The notes below the pieces were generated by a model that worked only from the letters and a program-made list of their open reading frames with translations, ran no database searches and was not told where the DNA came from. The position numbers were made by a program, and so were the translations under genes. From a virus (taxonomy: Duplodnaviria; Caudoviricetes): a DNA stretch of 64,000 bases. Position 1 is the first letter of the stretch. Each line of letters begins with the position of its first letter. The stretch covers positions 448,001 to 512,000 of IMG/VR virus record IMGVR_UViG_3300037484_000435; one strand, written 5' to 3'. Below are positions 1,992 to 48,187 of this stretch, piece by piece.

Positions 1992-2177
1992 TCATTTGGG
2001 GCCAAGAACATCCAAAAATTTTTTAAACACAGGGGCCATAATACCAAGGACTTGTACCCCCGACTCAATCTTTTGTGTGATTGAAGTATTTGAGTCAGAG
2101 CAATCCATATCTGCAGCACTAAGTATTATCCTGTTTGTATCTGATAATAAATTACGTTCAATTTTGTTTTTGTCCAT
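1992..2177 (-). CDS. Hypothetical protein
   Basis: AGGAG RBS; co-directional ORF. Confidence 0.65.
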   Translation of the reverse strand: MDKNKIERNLLSDTNRIILSAADMDCSDSNTSITQKIESGVQVLGIMAPVFKKFLDVLGPK

Positions 2178-2204
2178 GTTTGTTTATTTAACTCCTGATT
2201 TTTT

Positions 2205-2760
2205 GGGGAGGTGGAGTTAGTGGTCCTCGTCTTATCTACCTCCCCTACGCGCGGTGGAATGTTGCTGTGACTTGCTTTCCTCCCATCACAGGGTTCTTAG
2301 CCCACAGCAGAGCACCCTAAAAATGCGTGGCTTATTGCTAACACCCCAAACGATTTAACTGCTTCCATCGTTGGGTGCCACCACCAAGAAAAGTTGGAGC
2401 AGCGGGAATCGAACCCACTAGTTACGGTGTTCCACCATTAACACCGAGAATTTGCTCCGCTTCAAAGTCCAATCCAATCGAGACGCCCAGTGGTCGACTT
2501 CACTAGGCGTGGTGGGACTCCTCTAAGTGCTCCTCCCATGCACGACGGCGATGCTGGGTGTGGCTATCTGCCAGACCTCTAGAGCCGTTTCAAGGGAGGG
2601 GGTCGAGAGGAGTCCCGAGTTCTCAGTAACTATACTATCCCGACTATCCGGTGGGATCCAGAGAGGTAAGGGTCTGAGAAAACCTAACCTCAATGGTCCT
2701 CCGCCGATTAGGGGAGGATTTAGCATAGCCTTTAGAACCGGCGCTGTTAAAGTTTGTTGT
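2205..2760 (-). ncRNA. Candidate structured ncRNA containing a tRNA-like module
   Basis: Consecutive helices (2205-2212/2238-2245, 2263-2269/2303-2309, ~2342-2377, ~2482-2510); only weak overlapping ORFs; lies downstream of hairpin element B. Confidence 0.4.
2394..2459 (-). ncRNA. tRNA-like element lacking an anticodon arm
   Basis: Minus strand: CGGAGCA acceptor strand, CGGTGTT-AATGGTGG-AACACCG D-like arm, GTGGG-TTCGATT-CCCGC T arm, TGCTCCA-A; 66 nt, no encoded CCA. Confidence 0.6.
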
Positions 2761-2869
2761 TTTTTCATTAGAGTATTTACTTAGGGCCAGTCCATTTTAT
2801 AACTCCTTTCGTTTATGCGTAAACGGTGGGACTACCCACCTACCAAATCAAAAGGTAAAGATCCTAATA

Positions 2870-7384: not shown

Positions 7385-8197
7385 TCACACACTGGTTATA
7401 CAGTTTGCTCTGAATCTACATTTTTTGTTATTGATAGCTTTTTTACTTCGTCGGGGTAAAAGTCGCTGAAGATCCTCAGAAGATAGATTAAAGTTTGTTA
7501 GAAGAATAAATTCCTCTGATATGCCCCAATGGGTTTCGTGTTTGACTTGGTCTGGGTTTAATAAAAACTTTTCAACAAGATCATATTTACGTTTCATGAA
7601 GAGTTCAGCATCTGTGTAAATCCACCTACAAAAGTCAATTGCCACAGAACCTCCATAATGCAGACGATAACAATTGTAACCTTTGTCTTTAAAGACACTC
7701 ACCTCGTTGTTATTTATTTCTCGGAAATGAGCTGCGACCCACTCCAACACCCATCTCGTGCTGGTAATACAAAGATGAAGGTCTCTTTGTCGGCAGGAAT
7801 CATCCACATTGCTTAATCCCCCATCACCATCAAAATAACCACGAATAAAATGTTTTATCATATCTGGTGGTAAATTTTTTGGTGGCTTAAGAGAAAGACT
7901 TTTGTTATTGTGTATACCAAAAGCGTTCAGTTGCTCGCACAGCTTCCTACTGTTAAAGGATACATGAGCAAAATCAAACGATTTTATCCCCGCATTGCCC
8001 CAAGTTTTGCGTTGTGTGTATTTAGTAATAGGTCGAGATGGTTGAATCTGATCCCTAATTACCCTAACTGTGTTTCTGTCCTTCGCTGATAGGTAAACTG
8101 AAACAGAACGATTATACTTATCTATAGACCCATCCGCGGCCAAAAAACCAAGTAGGTAGGCTTTATTTTGATGATCAATCTTACTGAAATCTAACAT
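7385..8197 (-). CDS. Free-standing LAGLIDADG homing endonuclease
   Basis: Two motifs, YLLGFLAADGSI and FIRGYFDGDGGL; own AAGGAGG RBS. Confidence 0.9.
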   Translation of the reverse strand: MLDFSKIDHQNKAYLLGFLAADGSIDKYNRSVSVYLSAKDRNTVRVIRDQIQPSRPITKYTQRKTWGNAGIKSFDFAHVSFNSRKLCEQLNAFGIHNNKSLSLKPPKNLPPDMIKHFIRGYFDGDGGLSNVDDSCRQRDLHLCITSTRWVLEWVAAHFREINNNEVSVFKDKGYNCYRLHYGGSVAIDFCRWIYTDAELFMKRKYDLVEKFLLNPDQVKHETHWGISEEFILLTNFNLSSEDLQRLLPRRSKKAINNKKCRFRANCITSV

Positions 8198-8306: not shown

Positions 8307-8906
8307 CTATGTACACGCAAATACATGCTCTCTGGGAGGCCACAAACAAGAGCGTAGATACTCTGACGCACTCATATGTTCGTGTTTAGGTGCCACCTTA
8401 AGGTTCTCTTCGGCTTCTCTGGCTTTCTCTCTTATCCTATGTCCATTTTCTTGGCAGAATTCTTGTTCAGATAAACGCAGGGAATACACACGGAGAGATT
8501 CGTCATTACCGAGACTCATCAAGTAATGCAGATCATCGCGCCGAGATAATTGGTCTGCTACCCGATTACGGCGTCTTTTCACCCATTCCAGTTTCCATTG
8601 TCCATTCTTTGGAAATGATTTTCTTAGGGTTGTCAGCATCTGGTAACGATAAGAACCAGCAGAAGCCTTTAAACTCGCGCCTTGCTTAACCCCCGCCAAA
8701 ATACTTTTGCAGTCAGTATAAAAGGTAGTAGGCAAGTCCTGTTCTGAGTTCAACAGGCTGGTCGCTAATACCAAAACCTGTAGCTCCCTGTCAATAGAGT
8801 CATCACTAATATCCTTTCGATGACTAAATGCCAGACAATCCGGCCTCATTACTATGCCCAGACCCTTCCCAGAGGCATCCACCCACACTTTCCTTTGAAC
8901 CAACAT
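8307..8906 (-). CDS. RNase HI-like protein
   Basis: Acidic tetrad VDAS / REL / YTDC / N-x-VADQLS; LEWVKR motif. Confidence 0.75.
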   Translation of the reverse strand: MLVQRKVWVDASGKGLGIVMRPDCLAFSHRKDISDDSIDRELQVLVLATSLLNSEQDLPTTFYTDCKSILAGVKQGASLKASAGSYRYQMLTTLRKSFPKNGQWKLEWVKRRRNRVADQLSRRDDLHYLMSLGNDESLRVYSLRLSEQEFCQENGHRIREKAREAEENLKVAPKHEHMSASEYLRSCLWPPREHVFACT

Positions 8907-25812: not shown

Positions 25813-25977
25813 TTAGGTAGGTGGCCAAAGCCACGCCACAATATCAACGGAGAACCACCCCACCAATAGGCTTATCACAACGACTAGCCACACGGGTGTT
25901 GCGACATATCCAATAAACGTACCCCAAATAACAGCAAGTAAGGTAGCTACAAGAAGCTCTTTATAAATCTGTTTCAT
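25813..25977 (-). CDS. Small 2-TM membrane protein (54 aa, not in track)
   Basis: ATGA overlap with the rtcB stop; MKQIYKELLVATLLAVIWG... Confidence 0.65.
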   Translation of the reverse strand: MKQIYKELLVATLLAVIWGTFIGYVATPVWLVVVISLLVGWFSVDIVAWLWPPT

Positions 25978-27131
25978 CCTTTAACTACTCCTATCGGTGT
26001 TAACTTGGTCACAATCTTAACAAGGTCCTTTTGGTTTTCCATCACAGACTCAATATCCTTGTAAGCACCAGCAGCCTCGTCTAAGTCTTTCTCGTGGCGA
26101 ATCCCATGAACAACACCCAGATCATCCAGACGTTTAATTTCGTCCGCAAGATTTAAATTCTTTTTAGCCTGATTACGTCCCATCTTGCGTCCCGCACCGT
26201 GGCTACAACTATAAAAACTGTCGGGATTACCTAATCCCTCTACAATGTAGCTCGATGTCCCTTGGGAGCCTGGGATGATGCCAGCCTGTTTCTCTCGGGC
26301 AGAGGTCGCCCCCTTGCGATGTATATAAAGTTCCTTTCCGCCTATCTTTTCCAGCGATGCATAGTTATGTGCTATGTTGATGGGTTCTTGGAACTTCACC
26401 GGAGCGATTACTTCGAGAATGGCTGCCTCTACTTGATCTGCCATGACCTGTCGGTTCTGAAGGGCAAAGTCCACAGCATACTGCATTTCCAGAAGATACA
26501 GGTCGAAGTTAGGGTCTCCTTGCTCGAAGAATGCAAGGTCCCAACTTGGAGGTATGGGGTAGCCAGCCTTTTGGTTCTGGTCTTTAGCAATCTTATTATA
26601 GTGATCTGCGATCTGTTTTCCAAGATTTCGAGAACCTGAGTGGATCATATACCAGACATAACCATCTGAATCTACTTGTAATTCGAGGAAGTGGTTTCCA
26701 CCGCCTAAAGTACCTAATTGCACAGTAGCCTTTGGAAGCTCATGCTTGATAACAGGTAACTTATCAGGTGGTTTGTTTAACGGAGCAACACTGCTTTTGT
26801 GCCAATTGAATCCTACGGGCACACGCTGGCGAATGTTACCCATGACCGCTTTTACCTGATCACGTGTTATCTCTGTTATGCCTGTCTTGCACGCAAGCAT
26901 TCCACATCCAATATCAACCCCCACGGCATTCGGAATTACGACATTATCTAAAGCAATAACTCCACCTATTGGCATCCCAAAACCTTGGTGGGCATCGCTC
27001 ATGACCGCCACATGGTCAAATGCGAAGGGCAATTGGGCGAGGTTATCCACTTGAGTTCTGGCTCCTAGTTCTAGGTCAGGGCACCAACTGAAAACGGGAA
27101 CCCGATAAGTTTCTTTCTTGAATATATCCAC
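25974..27131 (-). CDS. rtcB: RNA-splicing ligase RtcB
   Basis: DAHQGFGMPIG, VGVDIGCG, GTLGGGNHF, HSGSR, HRKGA, SCSHGAGR, DEAAGAYK motifs; no intein. Confidence 0.97.
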   Translation of the reverse strand: MDIFKKETYRVPVFSWCPDLELGARTQVDNLAQLPFAFDHVAVMSDAHQGFGMPIGGVIALDNVVIPNAVGVDIGCGMLACKTGITEITRDQVKAVMGNIRQRVPVGFNWHKSSVAPLNKPPDKLPVIKHELPKATVQLGTLGGGNHFLELQVDSDGYVWYMIHSGSRNLGKQIADHYNKIAKDQNQKAGYPIPPSWDLAFFEQGDPNFDLYLLEMQYAVDFALQNRQVMADQVEAAILEVIAPVKFQEPINIAHNYASLEKIGGKELYIHRKGATSAREKQAGIIPGSQGTSSYIVEGLGNPDSFYSCSHGAGRKMGRNQAKKNLNLADEIKRLDDLGVVHGIRHEKDLDEAAGAYKDIESVMENQKDLVKIVTKLTPIGVVKG

Positions 27132-30830: not shown

Positions 30831-31832
30831 TCAATCCAATACTCGGTCTGCCATTTCCAAAACACTTTCTTTAGTCTTCGCTCGTGCTTGAAAGCGGGCA
30901 CGATGACAAAAAACAGCGTCAGGTAGACCAGTAATCCTTGCAAACTCTGGACCTTCTTTGCCCGCCCAATCAACGGGGAGCAATTTCTTTGATGCAAACC
31001 TATCCCCTGACTCAGGAACAGATTGAATAACCCAGTTGTTTGCGGATTCATCAAAGAATACTACAAACAGAATTTCTGGGTATCTAGCAACAGTTTCCCC
31101 CCACATAGCATGTCGCTTAAGTATAAGTAATCTTGGGTCATTTTGCCTAGATGTCTCAATAGCACGCATTACTAGGTCTTGGTCAGTAACCCAGTAACGG
31201 GCCTTCTCAATCTCCCGAGTTAATATGCCTTGAGCTTGTTCTACTGTTTCCATAAATTGTTTATAGAGTATAGCGTCTATCTCGTTTTGAGATTTTCCTA
31301 CAAATGAAGCAGAGGGTGAGATGAACCCTGCGATAAAAGATTGCAGGTCGTATACTCGGTAAGGGGTGTGCGGTGTGTAAGTATCGGTTCCACAGTCAAC
31401 CGCGTCGATACTAGATAGAAGCTTATCATCTATCCTATTGAAAATTTTTTCATCCCCCACAAATTCTGGCCAGAAATGCTTCCCGACCAAGCCTACAGAG
31501 GCGTAAGGCCTACCGTCAGGGCGGGCCAAAGTAAAGTCGGGCATGTGATGATCGAAATCGGTTGGTGGGGCATATTTCATCCCTACATCTACTCGTATAT
31601 CGGCTGTCTGTAATAATTCTTTATCCCGAGTACGAATAACATCAGATTGCGGGTGCACTAGCAAAATTATAGCAACCGCAAAAATATCATCGGCGTGTGG
31701 TGTGCCGTTATGTGTAGCAATTAAAGTCAAAGGTGTATCCATCTGTTTAAATTTGGCTAAAGCTAGTCCTAATACAAGACCGATCCCGATTAGGACTAGC
31801 ACCGACGTAATCTTCTCAATTGTTTGTTTCAT
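30831..31832 (-). CDS. MYG1 family (DHH) 3'-5' RNA exonuclease
   Basis: THNG..HADD, RTRD, VDVG..Y, DHH, G..DAVFCH...F motifs; hydrophobic N-terminus. Confidence 0.9.
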   Translation of the reverse strand: MKQTIEKITSVLVLIGIGLVLGLALAKFKQMDTPLTLIATHNGTPHADDIFAVAIILLVHPQSDVIRTRDKELLQTADIRVDVGMKYAPPTDFDHHMPDFTLARPDGRPYASVGLVGKHFWPEFVGDEKIFNRIDDKLLSSIDAVDCGTDTYTPHTPYRVYDLQSFIAGFISPSASFVGKSQNEIDAILYKQFMETVEQAQGILTREIEKARYWVTDQDLVMRAIETSRQNDPRLLILKRHAMWGETVARYPEILFVVFFDESANNWVIQSVPESGDRFASKKLLPVDWAGKEGPEFARITGLPDAVFCHRARFQARAKTKESVLEMADRVLD

Positions 31833-33367
31833 TACTCCTCTGGGAGGTTTAGAAGGGTTTCTTGGTTGTCCATCACGTAACGTTCTAGCACTTCAGGGTC
31901 ATTCTCAATAACCTCGCCGGTCACTAGATCGAATAAGTGGTTCAAAACCTTTCCAACCGTTCGGCTAGGCTTGACACTTAACAGTCGCATAACGTCATGC
32001 CCATTGAGCAATACGTCTTTAACTGTACGTGCGGACCTTTCTTGTTCTAAATAGGACAACACTTTTGTACGGATGTTGGCCCCTCGTTCTACCACTTCCC
32101 ACATAGGTTCAGCATCTTCTCTACCCAGTGGATAATCTAACCATAGTTCTCGGCCTAGAGTATCTGCCAAGAAAAGCATCATGGACCTATCAACCATATC
32201 CATGTCAAAATTACTTACGCCTATGTGCCTCAACCTGCGAGACATACGCATTTTGTCAGCAGAAAAAGTATGCATGTGTCCACCAATCAGATGTTTAACC
32301 TGATCCATGTCCACATCATATTTATCTGTGGGGCCATAAAGTTTTAGACGAGGGCAGATATGATCATCCAGTATTCGTACCCCTTCAGCATCGTGGCCGT
32401 GAAAAGAATAGCCATATTCTCTGAGTTGGCGGTCGCGATCATTGTCATTGTCCAGTCCCAAAGTTTTGACATCTTGTGTTACTCCTTTTCCTACATCATG
32501 AAATACAGCGGTTACTCGGTCAGTCAGATCGCCACCCATACGGACGACGTTATCTAACACCATAAGGGTATGCCCTCCCACACATTCAGAGTGCCATACG
32601 TTTTGAGGCATATCAAAGAGACATGCCAATTCGGGAATCCACATATCCAAAATACCGAGTTCTTGGAGAAATGTCATTCCCAGAGGTGCACGTTCCGTGG
32701 ATAAAGTACCTAGAAATGCATCTCGAAAACGCTCTCCACTGAGATTTCTGACTCTCCGAACTACTTGTGGATTGTTAAGAACATCGAAAACCGCCGTTTC
32801 TGGAACTAAACCATAACGACAGACAAACATAATCCACCGAAGAATGCGGAGAGCATCTTCAAGGATGCGGTCTTCTGCATTCCCAATGAAACGGGCAACC
32901 CCGTCCTCGATGTCTTGGATTCCTCCAACATAATCAATAACTTCTCCTGTCAACGGATCACAAAGTAACCCATTGATGGTTAGGTCACGTCGTTGGACAT
33001 CCCACATGGGACCCATTTCGTTGTCAAATGTAAAGATGGGTTTTACGTCACGGCGATTTTCGCCATGGCCGTGGTCTAGACGTGTAGTGGTCAGTTCAAT
33101 CTTGCAGTTACTCTCATCGTCGATAAGAGTGATTGTGCCATACTGTTCGCCCGTTGGAATAGCTTTGAACCCGAGGTTCTTAGCCTCCTCTGGGCTTCTT
33201 GTATGACACATATCCATATCATTAAAGGATCGACCCATAAGTAGGTCGCGAACTGGGCCACCTACAATATAACCTCGGCCACCCCTTTGTAGGAGGGCAC
33301 GGGCTATTCTCTTAGAGAACCGCACTTCTTCAGTATCAGGTAAAGCTAGTCGAGTAGTCCGTGCCAT
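31832..33367 (-). CDS. cca: Class II tRNA nucleotidyltransferase (CCA-adding) with HD domain
   Basis: GG.VRDLL.G...DMD, RRDLTIN, EDALRILR, ER; HD domain HT...HDVGK. Confidence 0.92.
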   Translation of the reverse strand: MARTTRLALPDTEEVRFSKRIARALLQRGGRGYIVGGPVRDLLMGRSFNDMDMCHTRSPEEAKNLGFKAIPTGEQYGTITLIDDESNCKIELTTTRLDHGHGENRRDVKPIFTFDNEMGPMWDVQRRDLTINGLLCDPLTGEVIDYVGGIQDIEDGVARFIGNAEDRILEDALRILRWIMFVCRYGLVPETAVFDVLNNPQVVRRVRNLSGERFRDAFLGTLSTERAPLGMTFLQELGILDMWIPELACLFDMPQNVWHSECVGGHTLMVLDNVVRMGGDLTDRVTAVFHDVGKGVTQDVKTLGLDNDNDRDRQLREYGYSFHGHDAEGVRILDDHICPRLKLYGPTDKYDVDMDQVKHLIGGHMHTFSADKMRMSRRLRHIGVSNFDMDMVDRSMMLFLADTLGRELWLDYPLGREDAEPMWEVVERGANIRTKVLSYLEQERSARTVKDVLLNGHDVMRLLSVKPSRTVGKVLNHLFDLVTGEVIENDPEVLERYVMDNQETLLNLPEE

Positions 33368-33995: not shown

Positions 33996-35105
33996 ATGAA
34001 ATTAACCGTCCCTCTAAAGCTACTAACCGATGGAACTCAATCTAAAATCCTTCACGATACTATTCTGGAGGCTAATAGGGTAAGTAATTTAATCGCGTCT
34101 ATTGCTTGGGAACGGCATACAGTAGGTAAGATTGCTCTACAAAAATTAGTTTACCATGATCTACGTAACAAAACTACTCTGTCATCACAAATGTTAATTC
34201 ATGCGATTCATAAAGTTGCTGATGCTTATCGGATTAACAAAAAGGTTGTTCCCCAGTTTAACCCCAAAGGTTCTATTGCTTATGATGCACGGATACTTAC
34301 CGTTCGGAATGAAAAACAATACATCACAATATGGACAACATTGGGACGCATCAAAGTTGCTTACACGTCAGGCACTAAACAGCTTAAGTTATTAAATCAA
34401 ACTATCAAGATTGGGGAATGTGACCTCATCTTGAGAAATAACCGATGGTACCTACATTGCTCTCTAGAAGTTCCTGAGAAGCACCATCAAAAACCCCAAG
34501 GCATGTTGGGAGTCGATCTCGGAATTAAGAATATTGCGGTAACTTCCGACAATAAGGTTTATTGTGGTGCCCAACTTAACAGTTTACGTAAACGCCACTG
34601 CCGTTTGCGTGCTAAATTGCAATCGAAGGGAACCCGTTCCGCAAAACGGTTGCTACGTAAACGTAGTAAACGTGAATCTCGGATGGCGCGCAACGCTAAT
34701 CACATAATCTCCAAACGTATTGTTGCCACGGCTAAATGCACGAAGCGTAGTATTGCCCTTGAAAATCTTAAAGGCATTACTAAGCGGACTAAGGTTTCTA
34801 AAGCCCAGCGTAATCAGCAACATAGTTGGAGTTTTTACCAACTTAAATCTTTCATTGAATATAAGGCCCGCCTCGTGGGTGTAGAAGTAGTTCTAGTTAA
34901 TCCTAAAAATACTAGCATCACTTGCCCTAAATGTGGCTTAATTCGAAAATCCAATCGTCGTGACCGAGATCACTTCGTTTGTAGACGTAAAGAGTGTGGT
35001 TACGCTGACCATGCTGATTACGTGGCCGCTTTAAACATCGCGTCTAAAGCGGCGGTTGTGGGGCATAGCCCTAACGTCAACCAACCCAACGTTTCGGTGG
35101 CATAA
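33996..35105 (+). CDS. tnpB: TnpB RNA-guided endonuclease
   Basis: RuvC GVDLG / ALENL / ADYVAALN, CPKC...C zinc finger. Confidence 0.95.
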   Translation: MKLTVPLKLLTDGTQSKILHDTILEANRVSNLIASIAWERHTVGKIALQKLVYHDLRNKTTLSSQMLIHAIHKVADAYRINKKVVPQFNPKGSIAYDARILTVRNEKQYITIWTTLGRIKVAYTSGTKQLKLLNQTIKIGECDLILRNNRWYLHCSLEVPEKHHQKPQGMLGVDLGIKNIAVTSDNKVYCGAQLNSLRKRHCRLRAKLQSKGTRSAKRLLRKRSKRESRMARNANHIISKRIVATAKCTKRSIALENLKGITKRTKVSKAQRNQQHSWSFYQLKSFIEYKARLVGVEVVLVNPKNTSITCPKCGLIRKSNRRDRDHFVCRRKECGYADHADYVAALNIASKAAVVGHSPNVNQPNVSVA

Positions 35106-35404: not shown

Positions 35405-35617
35405 CTCGTTAGGGCCTCTTCGCCAATGTTATAAAGGCTTTTTAGGTAATACACACTACCCCTTACTCTCAGGATTGTTTAATGTATTACAACAGAGCCC
35501 ACCACTAGAGGAGTATGTTGGGGGTGTTATGACCTAAATAACGTAGCTTCGTATGAAGCTGAGGCTAGTCAACCAAGGCAGTTTAGTGCCTCCACCATTG
35601 AGTGGGAGTTAATTGAC
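35405..35617 (-). ncRNA. Orphan IscB-type omegaRNA (HEARO-like), no linked ORF
   Basis: GTCAA...TTGACTAGCC...CGTTATTTAGGTCAT...ACC...CTCC..AGT...AAACA...AAGCCTTTATAAC.TTGGCGA.GAGG..CTAAC, collinear with the omegaRNA at 42898. Confidence 0.85.
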
Positions 35618-42897: not shown

Positions 42898-43110
42898 GTC
42901 AATTCCTTGTCTTTATGAGATAGACTTGAAAAAATTAAGTCTAATTGACTAGCCCCCACCCAATGAGTGGAAACGTTATTTAGGTCATGCTACCTGAAAA
43001 TGCTCCTCAAGTTTTCAGCCCTAGCGTTTAGGATTAAACAGTTCTGAGAGGTAGGAACAGTGTTCTAAACTTAACAAGCCTTTATAACTGGGCGATGAGG
43101 CTCTAACCCT
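42898..43110 (+). ncRNA. omegaRNA (HEARO-like) of IscB
   Basis: GTCAA...TTGACTAGCC...CGTTA...TACC...TGCTCC..AAGT...AAACAG...CAGTG...GGCGA.GAGG landmarks directly upstream of iscB. Confidence 0.88.
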
Positions 43111-46561: not shown

Positions 46562-48187
46562 ATGCTACCCACAAAAATCCTAGCAGACGGGATTGAAAGA
46601 GCTTTTGAACACCGAAAGTTTCCATGGGATTTCTATTTTATCGCGATGGCAGAAGCTGATTGGCGGGCTGGTCGAGCAGATTTACCAGCAACCAAGAGTT
46701 TTTATATACGAAACGCTCCCTTTGGCGGAAGTTACTGTCTCCTTGGTGGTATCACTGAGGCTCTAGTAACTATTAAGAATCTGGATTTCCTCAGCAAAGA
46801 TTTCTTTCACGGTGCTGTTCATATGGGCTCTTCTCCAGATTTTGTGAATTGGCTGGCTGTTCGAGAAAGGTTGCGTATTCGTGTTATTGGTGGGAGAGAG
46901 GGAACTGTGTTCTTCCCCAACGAACCTATCGTAACAGTACAGGGGCCATTAGCAGATATTCGTTTGGTTGAGGGTATTCTGACTTATGCCCTGAACTTTT
47001 CTTCTTTGTCGTTAACTAAGTGGTATCGAGTCGTAAAAGCGGCCCGCCCAGGACAAGTTTTGGATTTCTCTTTGAGAAGGGCACAGAACAGTAGACGTGC
47101 ATCCCTGAACGCAATGCTGGCAGGATGCTCTGCCACATCTAACTGCGACATAGCAGAATTCTTTGACGTTCCCGTCCGAGGCACAATGGGACATGAATAC
47201 CCAATGGGTCATGGAGACGTTAAGATAGCTTTTGAGCAGTGGTTGGAATATCAACCTAATCGACCTATCGGTTTGATTGACACCCTGCAATGCTTGGAGA
47301 ACGACTTTCCTCTTTGGCTCGACGCTGTATACAAATATCGGGAAAAGATTAAGAATGCAGGGTCTCCTATTTGGGGATGGCGAAATGATTCGGGTGACCT
47401 CGGTTACCTAACAGTTGAGCAATACAGACGCTTCCTCAACCATGAGTTGGCAAAGGACGAATGGTTCCGAGAGCGGATGAGGGTTATTTTAACGAATGAG
47501 CTGGACGAGTATACAATCACAGCGATTATAAACCAAATAAGAGATGATGCTGAGCCCGCAGGTTTAGATGTCCATGATATCAAAAGTCGGATTATATGGG
47601 CGGCGGGCACGCGACCTGGAGTTTGCGAAGACCAGCCCTCTCTGGGCGGTGTAGCCAAACTTATGGAAGTAGACGGTTGTCCTACTCTTAAACCAGCATT
47701 GGATTCGGATGGACATCCTGGTCCCAAGACGTCGATACCAGGATTTAATCTATCGTGCTTGGTGCCCAATGGAGACAGCAGTATCGCATGTTGTCTAATA
47801 TATCCTGCACATCATTATAATCTTGTGTCCGATGGAGCAGGTGGGTGGTCTTTACACAATAAAAAGACAAGCAAGACACCCAAAACAATAGTCACCATGC
47901 ACAAGGATTCCAGCTCGTCTTTTATGGAGTTGAAAAATCAAGGTTTGATTGCACAGCAAGATTGCCTCTACGATTCTACCCAAGGTGCTTCCGTGCTAGG
48001 TGACGCGTGGCTGGAAACACTAGATGGAGTTACAAAGCGGATAGAAGATGGTATTGGTAGACTCCACTTCACAATGACATCGAGGCTGGTGAAGCCCCAC
48101 AGTATGAAAGTATCGGTAACACCCGACCTCTTTGAGCTGCGGGATTCTATGTTGAAAAATAAGACCTTGATGGGAGAGAAATCTTAA
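46562..48187 (+). CDS. pncB: Nicotinate phosphoribosyltransferase (Gram-positive/archaeal-type PncB)
   Basis: DFY...M, R..PF.G.Y, DF.LRRAQ, TSN......P..GTMGH, LIDT, R.DSGDL, NELDE, LGGV.KL. Confidence 0.85.
   Translation: MLPTKILADGIERAFEHRKFPWDFYFIAMAEADWRAGRADLPATKSFYIRNAPFGGSYCLLGGITEALVTIKNLDFLSKDFFHGAVHMGSSPDFVNWLAVRERLRIRVIGGREGTVFFPNEPIVTVQGPLADIRLVEGILTYALNFSSLSLTKWYRVVKAARPGQVLDFSLRRAQNSRRASLNAMLAGCSATSNCDIAEFFDVPVRGTMGHEYPMGHGDVKIAFEQWLEYQPNRPIGLIDTLQCLENDFPLWLDAVYKYREKIKNAGSPIWGWRNDSGDLGYLTVEQYRRFLNHELAKDEWFRERMRVILTNELDEYTITAIINQIRDDAEPAGLDVHDIKSRIIWAAGTRPGVCEDQPSLGGVAKLMEVDGCPTLKPALDSDGHPGPKTSIPGFNLSCLVPNGDSSIACCLIYPAHHYNLVSDGAGGWSLHNKKTSKTPKTIVTMHKDSSSSFMELKNQGLIAQQDCLYDSTQGASVLGDAWLETLDGVTKRIEDGIGRLHFTMTSRLVKPHSMKVSVTPDLFELRDSMLKNKTLMGEKS

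Follow-up and report, generated by a model that had tools for sequence, protein, structure and literature searches.

The element and its fold

The window analyzed here is a stretch of 64,000 nucleotides (nt), positions 448,001–512,000 of the 545,322-base-pair (bp) virus record IMGVR_UViG_3300037484_000435, a phage from sediment. On its minus strand, at window positions 2394–2459 (450.4 kb of the genome), is a 66-nt element that resembles a transfer RNA (tRNA) in sequence, fold and descriptor statistics and forms a predicted three-way junction without an anticodon arm. The element is hosted by a GC-rich, structured, non-coding block of approximately 600 nt (2185–2790, minus strand). The neighbouring genes are orphans on the same strand, and those beside the element match no Pfam or PHROG family. 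All 40 tRNAs that ARAGORN identifies in the phage are on the plus strand, the nearest of them beyond approximately 56 kb from the element.

Read from 2459 to 2394 on the minus strand, the element begins with CGGAGCA (2453–2459), the 5' strand of an acceptor-like stem in which C1 faces A72 and pairs 2–7 are Watson-Crick (mean pair probability 0.61 in context). The 6-nt linker AAUUCU (2447–2452) occupies the place of U8-N9 in a tRNA and is unpaired in both folds. It is followed by a 7-bp hairpin with an 8-nt loop, CGGUGUU-AAUGGUGG-AACACCG (2425–2446; pair probability 0.71), and by a second linker, UAACUA (2419–2424), which in sequence and fold is at the variable-loop position. The T arm, GUGGG-UUCGAUU-CCCGC (2402–2418; pair probability 0.98), is canonical and contains G53-C61, U54, U55, C56 and A58. 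The 3' acceptor strand, UGCUCCA (2395–2401), abuts the T stem without a spacer, giving a 12-bp coaxial branch. An A is at the discriminator position (2394) and is followed by CUUUUC, a trailer that was compared with those of the phage tRNAs; CCA is not encoded.

The three-way junction is both the minimum free energy structure and the centroid in RNAfold (−24.9 kcal/mol, z = −3.2), and none of 200 shuffled sequences folds as well. The junction is kept in the centroid when a 616-nt context is folded. Its 18 pairs comprise 17 Watson-Crick pairs and one U-G pair and are thus all standard. No robust helix prolongs the acceptor into the flanks in the context folds.

The inner four base pairs of the hairpin and its loop (UGUU-AAUGGUGG-AACA) fit the tRNA D-arm consensus, including the equivalents of A14 and G18-G19; the Rfam tRNA consensus D loop used in this comparison is AaUGGU.Aa. 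The outer three base pairs are extra relative to a tRNA D stem. The loop therefore agrees with the consensus, but the stem is 7 bp long, the linker is 6 nt long and U8 is missing. The other half of the element is arranged as in a tRNA, with a 7-bp acceptor stacked on a T stem of 5 bp that closes a canonical loop, apart from the C×A at 1:72. The acceptor and the T stem are separated by 34 nt. Because one 22-nt hairpin and the two linkers use up these 34 nt, there is no space for an anticodon arm, and the 5-bp stem and 7-nt loop of such an arm are absent. The original prediction for this locus had described a tRNA-like fold with acceptor, D-like and T parts, a C1:A72 mismatch, a discriminator A and no encoded CCA. 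It had further described the same D-like loop, a canonical T arm and a lack of room for an anticodon arm. Sequence and RNAfold agree with this description throughout.

The non-coding block and its cassette

The block has a GC content of 53%, against 43% in the sequence around it, and folds with z = −3.95. Its only open reading frame (ORF) encodes 81 amino acids (aa; 2768–2523) and has a coding score of −0.09, lower than that of any credible gene, compared with 0.157 ± 0.043 for the long ORFs of the phage. This ORF has no homologue in a set of 5.8e9 proteins and matches no Pfam or PHROG family. A coding explanation for the block is rejected on the codon score, the homology search and the family search. 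The block also matches no Rfam family and has no paralogue in the genome. A TAG read-through frame of 138 codons crosses the element and is likewise rejected. TAG recoding is unsupported because treating any stop codon as recoded inflates ORFs similarly and because TAG terminates 41 of the 263 long ORFs. A tRNA with a CUA anticodon, of the amber suppressor type, is encoded at genome positions 47,126–47,202 (plus strand) despite the absence of any genome-wide sign of TAG recoding.

Upstream of the block on the minus strand is a motif made up of a hairpin and a GGATTTATAG box (2869–2910), which aligns with motifs of other minus-strand cassettes (repeat families D3 and D12) and is a putative phage promoter. 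It is followed by a leader hairpin, GGUGGG-UAGU-CCCACC (2840–2825), a strong Shine-Dalgarno (SD) sequence, AAGGAG (2808–2803), and a four-codon mini-ORF, ATG GAC TGG CCC TAA (MDWP-stop; 2795–2781), directly before the block. The SD sequence and the four codons represent either a cassette ORF that has been truncated or a mini-ORF in the leader. Directly downstream of the block is a 61-aa orphan ORF with its own SD sequence (1992–2177, minus strand; coding score 0.07). No terminator-like site is present between the block and the 61-aa ORF, and the two are probably in the same transcription unit. A long-range pairing of 2469–2462 with the SD sequence of the 61-aa ORF appears in a truncated fold only; it is missing from the 616-nt fold and is not used here.

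Comparison with random sequence

A descriptor was defined as a canonical T arm, an abutting 6-bp acceptor and an internal hairpin of at least 5 bp, with a total length of 55–80 nt. The 545-kb genome contains 18 matches to this descriptor, of which 17 are on ARAGORN tRNAs and the remaining one is the element. The mean number of matches in 20 Markov-simulated genomes is 0.1. An independent 916-nt Joint Genome Institute (JGI) contig from the same phage is identical at 915 of 916 positions and matches the element base for base. The element is thus not an assembly artefact; as the contig comes from the same phage, it is uninformative for covariation. A chance origin is unlikely given the descriptor rate, the all-standard pairing and the consensus D loop. 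Ancestry from a tRNA is the natural reading for such an element in a phage with 40 tRNA genes.

Comparison with tRNA, tmRNA and Y RNA

ARAGORN, run with default settings, calls no tRNA or transfer-messenger RNA (tmRNA) in the window. The best Rfam match of the element is tRNA-Sec, with 15.7 bits and E = 9.7 (gathering score 47). The relaxed ARAGORN modes (-ps80, -mt, -mtx, -i, and -m -ps70) return a 79-nt "tRNA-Leu(taa)" cloverleaf and permuted-tmRNA calls that are ridden with mismatches. An ordinary tRNA is rejected on the default ARAGORN result, the low Rfam score and the poor credibility of the relaxed cloverleaf.

A tRNA from which the anticodon arm has simply been deleted is also rejected, as 9 nt lie between the acceptor and the 4-bp core of the D stem, where a tRNA has 2, and as the D stem is lengthened by three perfect pairs. 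Deriving the element from a tRNA would take an insertion as well as a deletion, at the least, and still none of its 18 pairs is broken. No parent is found among the 40 phage tRNAs, including an initiator-like Met tRNA with C1×U72, and phage databases yield generic T-arm matches only. A search of representative genomes from 185,579 species of bacteria and archaea finds no copy of the 22-nt 3' half, made up of T arm and acceptor sequence. This absence disfavours both a copy of a host tRNA and a fragment retained as an attachment (att) site.

As a tmRNA (RF00023 and its clan), the element is rejected on the presence of G3-C70 instead of G3-U70, the lack of SmpB in the phage and the failure of ARAGORN and Rfam to detect it. 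SmpB (PF01668) has no match in the 545-kb genome, although a host SmpB could still exist. A search for partners in the phage finds no formyltransferase, and no mRNA-like tag frame is present at the element. Low-threshold tmRNA calls appear in the ARAGORN -ps70 mode only and are not credible. A Y RNA is rejected because the arms are in tRNA order, no YrlA match is obtained at E ≤ 10, and the block contains no GNCGAAN0-1G motif for Rsr binding. The rsr gene of the phage is approximately 383 kb from the element (genome positions ~67.1–68.7 kb vs. 450.4 kb) and is accompanied by two YrlA-like RNAs of its own.

Relatives and transcript data

A blastn search of the block against phages returns nothing. 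Searches with sequence patterns return seven matches in viral contigs, all unrelated, none in metagenomes, and 30 loci in genomes, none of which is a credible match to covariance model R1. The flanking proteins have no relatives in IMG/VR or in the set of 5.8e9 proteins.

An independent sediment metatranscriptome contains a 155-nt contig from a relative with approximately 95% identity, which matches 2260–2414 with five substitutions and three gaps. This contig spans just the 3' third of the element and is identical to it over the 3' half of the T arm, the 3' acceptor strand and the trailer. Within 2281–2291, two substitutions and three deleted bases change CCC-UGUGAU-GGG to CCUC-GUGA-GGGG, which has a GNRA-type loop. 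The apical hairpin of the 3' flank, in which the changes of the contig cluster, is thereby remodelled and its hairpin structure is kept. Both the metatranscriptome and the DNA-run data consist of contigs, which carry no ends, strand or level, and uncovered parts and holes in the DNA runs are uninformative. The contig hints weakly at the existence of a relative, at its possible transcription and at evolution of the flank as a structured RNA. The original prediction had placed the element in a longer transcript. Its sense orientation in a non-coding, structured stretch agrees with that claim, while the proposed expression is unsupported beyond this one short contig.

tRNA enzymes and Y RNA-like genes of the phage

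The window encodes, on the minus strand, a nucleotidyltransferase of the CCA-adding type (31832–33367; PolyA_pol head, HD and tRNA_NucTran2_2 domains), a candidate 3'-end maturation enzyme. A CCA enzyme of the phage's own had been part of the original prediction and is found here as a gene. A domain match identifies an RtcB RNA ligase (25974–27131, minus strand), and a MYG1-family exonuclease gene is also present within the window. A peptidyl-tRNA hydrolase (Pth) is encoded by the phage. As the phage encodes a CCA-adding enzyme and these other proteins, enzymes for maturing a tRNA-shaped RNA that lacks CCA are at hand. Approximately a dozen phage tRNA genes lack a full CCA and have N73-C followed by a common AAGAAAGG-type trailer; the rest encode CCA. 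These two trailer types suggest two classes of tRNA maturation, with a role for the phage CCA enzyme.

Two YrlA-like RNA candidates, each with 38 bits and E ~3e-6 (gathering score 69), are on the plus strand at genome positions 65,654–65,768 and 66,204–66,327 (L005:155–269 and 705–828), upstream of rsr. The Rsr/TROVE gene that follows them (genome positions ~67,067–68,737) encodes 538 aa. Together, the YrlA-like RNAs and Rsr look like a phage-borne Ro–Y RNA module. Judging from these candidates, non-decoding tRNA mimicry is already present in the phage genome.

A candidate RNA-processing module

The reading favoured here, with a rough probability of 0.4, takes the element for a module derived from a tRNA and recognized by ribonuclease P (RNase P) and by tRNA 3'-end and CCA enzymes. 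Such a module would punctuate the transcript and release a non-decoding small RNA. It would be a "top-half" structure, composed of the 12-bp acceptor/T branch and a D-loop/T-loop elbow, set in the lengthy non-coding leader of an accessory cassette on the minus strand. Transcription of the cassette would begin at its upstream hairpin/TATA-like motif and continue across both the block and the 61-aa ORF. The module would fold autonomously, RNase P would cut 5' of C1 (between 2460 and 2459), and a tRNA 3'-end nuclease would trim after A73. The CCA tail would come from the CCA-adding enzyme of the host or of the phage itself. The predicted products are a structured 5' RNA of approximately 330 nt, a stable, non-decoding, tRNA-shaped RNA of 66–69 nt and a 3' RNA that carries the 61-aa ORF.

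This processing module is favoured because the fold is robust both alone and in context, and its layout is found elsewhere only at true tRNAs. The spacer-free 7 + 5 bp branch, the canonical T loop and the GG in the D-like loop, which are measured by RNase P, RNase Z and CCA enzymes, also argue for it. The element is on the strand of its neighbours, a recurring cassette motif is upstream of it, and no terminator-like site precedes the 61-aa ORF. Codon score, stop-codon analysis and homology all indicate that the block is non-coding. The CCA-adding enzyme of the phage and its approximately dozen tRNA genes without a full CCA are further points in favour. The intact pairing, together with a D stem that is three perfect pairs longer and linkers that are also longer, is unlike random decay. 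The relative in the metatranscriptome keeps the 3' part of the element unchanged while its flank hairpin is remodelled into another hairpin. There is also a precedent in YrlA of M. smegmatis, an anticodon-less, tRNA-like module with a 7-bp acceptor that is cut by RNase P and tailed with CCA in vivo (PMC4201824).

Other observations weigh against processing. U8 is missing and position −1 is a G. A C74 after the discriminator is unfavourable for RNase Z. No diverged homologue covering the element is present in any collection searched (viral contigs, metagenomes, genomes and proteins), so neither covariation nor conservation can be called on. Covariance model R1 finds the element itself only, in a single copy, in the phage genome. 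The relative has no changes in the 34 nt that it shares with the element and trailer, where approximately 1.8 are expected, and this difference is not significant. Its contig connects the T arm and the 3' flank without a break and, if derived from RNA, represents unprocessed molecules; it may be explained equally by DNA carry-over. The cassette region around the element consists of orphans and changes fast, a setting in which junk is plausible.

Alternative explanations

It is nearly as likely, and in itself doubtful, that the element is a functionless relic, transcribed or not, that persists in a hyperplastic orphan region and is left over, after rearrangement, from a single tRNA gene or from a minus-strand array of tRNAs that has decayed. 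Its status as a singleton without homologues, its orphan neighbours, the position of all 40 real tRNAs on the other strand with none within approximately 56 kb, and the other odd tRNA-like loci of the phage are consistent with a relic. The 1-kb bin that contains the element has four relaxed ARAGORN calls and is the sole such bin outside the tRNA clusters. However, the other three calls have no canonical T loops and approximately 0.7 such bins are expected by chance; a decayed array is rejected, as four calls in one bin are not significant after multiple testing. The relic must also be reconciled with 18 intact pairs, including a perfect 7-bp hairpin, and with a history that a single deletion cannot provide, since approximately 7 nt are inserted after position 9 and a whole anticodon arm is lost. 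No parent tRNA is known from the phage, the phage databases or the 185,579 species. Chance resemblance, or the 3' fragment of a host tRNA retained as an att site, is much less probable again. Approximately 1.3 canonical T arms are expected by chance in the 1.09 Mb of two-strand sequence, and the full descriptor is still matched approximately 0.1 times per simulated genome. Chance is unlikely in view of that rate, the all-Watson-Crick stems and the consensus form of the D loop, and an att fragment would have no need of the matching 5' strand that is present here, in addition to the absence of its 22-nt 3' half from the species genomes.

In an improbable alternative, the tRNA-like elbow serves for tertiary contacts or protein docking within a single ~600-nt phage non-coding RNA, in the manner of Y RNAs and tmRNA, and is not excised from it. 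The strong folding of the block relative to shuffled sequences, the retention of the 3'-flank hairpin through multiple changes and the continuity of the RNA-library contig over the 3' acceptor boundary are all expected of such an RNA, and the two YrlA-like RNAs beside Rsr show that the phage may carry tRNA-like domains in larger RNAs. The block, however, has no Rfam family, Rsr-binding motif or paralogue, no robust helix leads from the acceptor into the flanks, and an open-ended 7-bp acceptor that abuts a T stem is the classical substrate geometry of RNase P. Slightly less probable is a decoy acting in trans, in which a processed, CCA-tailed mini-tRNA titrates readers of the acceptor and elbow such as toxins, defence nucleases or tRNA-binding enzymes. 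It would be a purpose-built, three-helix mini-tRNA, cut by RNase P and tailed by the phage CCA enzyme, that serves as a decoy or adaptor for host toxins, defence enzymes or the RNA-repair proteins of the phage. The heavy tRNA upkeep of the phage (40 tRNAs, CCA enzyme, RtcB, Pth and Rsr/Y RNAs) is compatible with a decoy, which otherwise draws solely on the structural facts that are also behind the processing module. Points against it are the lack of an adjacent partner gene among neighbours without families, the lack of conservation, the single copy behind an ordinary cassette promoter with no sign of sponge-level expression, and the absence of charging identity elements (G3-C70, not G3-U70). 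A minimal tmRNA, reduced to the tRNA-like domain as in jakobid mitochondria and acting with SmpB in ribosome rescue, is largely refuted. Its topology is similar, with an acceptor, a D-loop region, a short closed helix that replaces the anticodon arm, and a T arm. Further likenesses are the AUUCU after the acceptor, which E. coli tmRNA also has, and the terminal sequence CCCGC-UGCUCCA. Genes for tmRNA and SmpB occur in huge phages (PMC7162821). These likenesses are set against the missing alanine identity pair, the lack of phage SmpB and of a tag frame, the absence of an ARAGORN tmRNA, and the failure of any tmRNA-clan model to exceed 15.7 bits.

Relation to known tRNA mimics

Anticodon-less tRNA mimicry is of a known kind, represented by tmRNA, Y RNAs and mascRNA. 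The new variant here is the three-helix layout with a 7-bp D arm and no anticodon-stem stub, located within a long leader and remote from the tRNA clusters. In mascRNA/MALAT1 and MEN-beta, a tRNA-like fold in a long non-coding transcript is a signal for RNase P and RNase Z and gives rise to a CCA-tailed, non-aminoacylated RNA of approximately 60 nt. By analogy, the mascRNA type is the functional model favoured for the element. The sense orientation, the upstream motif and the non-coding block are seen in the sequence, and the predicted fold is compatible with the geometry required by RNase P, a 3' nuclease and a CCA enzyme. mascRNA differs in being eukaryotic and nuclear and in keeping a short equivalent of the anticodon stem, which gives it four helices rather than three.

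YrlA (Rfam RF02553; Chen et al. 2014, PMC4201824) likewise mimics the acceptor, D and T arms of a tRNA without an anticodon arm and occurs in bacteria and phages. Its order is T arm, closed acceptor-like hairpin and D arm, whereas the element has the tRNA order and an open-ended acceptor. The ends of YrlA exit through the "anticodon" position into a stem that binds Rsr, a motif that the element lacks. The tRNA-like domain of tmRNA, especially in mitochondrial tmRNAs made up of this domain only (Rfam clan CL00001), shares the acceptor, the D-loop region and the T arm, with a helix in place of the anticodon arm. It is described as a non-decoding RNA processed by RNase P (PMC3985003). The element differs from tmRNA in its lack of G3-U70, an mRNA-like part and a phage SmpB, and in escaping ARAGORN and Rfam.

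The phage tRNAs (RF00005) have the same 7/5 acceptor/T branch, canonical T loop and consensus D loop as the element. The element differs from them in having no anticodon arm or U8, a 7-bp D stem and 6-nt linkers, and in being on the opposite strand, distant and below detection thresholds. Irregular tRNAs from metagenomes (allo-tRNAs, in 8/4 and 9/3 forms) come from phages and from soil and sediment communities, and some are apparently outside translation (Mukai et al., PMC5389517). All of these keep the anticodon arm and have an altered acceptor/T split, whereas the element has the standard 7/5 split and is missing the arm.

The element is known from one phage population only. If functional, it would show that minimal tRNA shapes incapable of decoding are used by huge phages away from their tRNA clusters. 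These could be RNA-processing punctuation or stable small RNAs, beside Y RNAs/Rsr, RtcB, Pth and the CCA enzyme, and would be a bacterial-virus counterpart to the mascRNA-type processing signals of eukaryotes. A functional element would also be a defined 66-nt substrate for establishing what acceptor- and elbow-reading enzymes and defence toxins need. A decoy or adaptor mini-tRNA, if that reading were true, would be a distinct architectural class among the anticodon-less tRNA mimics of phages. At present the element is a well-formed singleton, of worth as a candidate for an RNase P/CCA assay rather than as a discovery.

Other tRNA-like loci and mobile genes

A second element, of 65 nt, is on the plus strand at genome positions 34,088–34,152 (L003:139–203); its 7-bp acceptor, TGGTAAG/CTTACCA, is perfectly paired, and its T arm is canonical. 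Its middle contains a CCTC-GCGG-GAGG hairpin and a further 21 nt; it is too short for an anticodon arm and is unmatched by covariance model R1. Unannotated canonical T arms are present on the plus strand at genome positions 1,158–1,272, 516,112–516,208 and 516,217–516,388 (L002 and L007), with 6–7-bp acceptor partners 97–172 nt upstream. From their sequences, these may be tRNAs with introns or insertions that ARAGORN missed.

A 111-nt tRNA on the plus strand at genome positions 89,135–89,245 (L006:136–246) scores 32.4 bits with the Rfam tRNA model; its D loop is enlarged by an insertion of 45 nt, and its anticodon loop carries GAA. It is directly followed by two RVT_1 reverse-transcriptase genes, at genome positions 89,676–90,323 and 92,340–92,975. 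The reverse transcriptases of the phage are approximately 360 kb from the 66-nt element. Unrelated IMG/VR contigs contain "minihelix" hairpins, in which an acceptor and a T arm are joined without a D or anticodon arm, for example GGTGGGA-N9-TTTAGGTTCGATTCCTAAA-TCCCACC. These are found at L018:2165–2198 (minus strand), L019:7663–7709 (plus strand) and L014:99–158 (minus strand).

Among the orphan cassettes of the window are a free-standing gene similar to LAGLIDADG homing endonucleases (7385–8197, minus strand) and an RNase H-like (RVT_3) gene (8307–8906, minus strand). The window also contains two full-length matches to HEARO RNA, with scores of 129 and 127 bits, one of which adjoins a TnpB-type protein with OrfB_IS605 and Cas12f1-like TNB domains. 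The TnpB/HEARO loci are at 33996–35105 (plus strand), 35408–35617 (minus strand) and 42898–43107 (plus strand).

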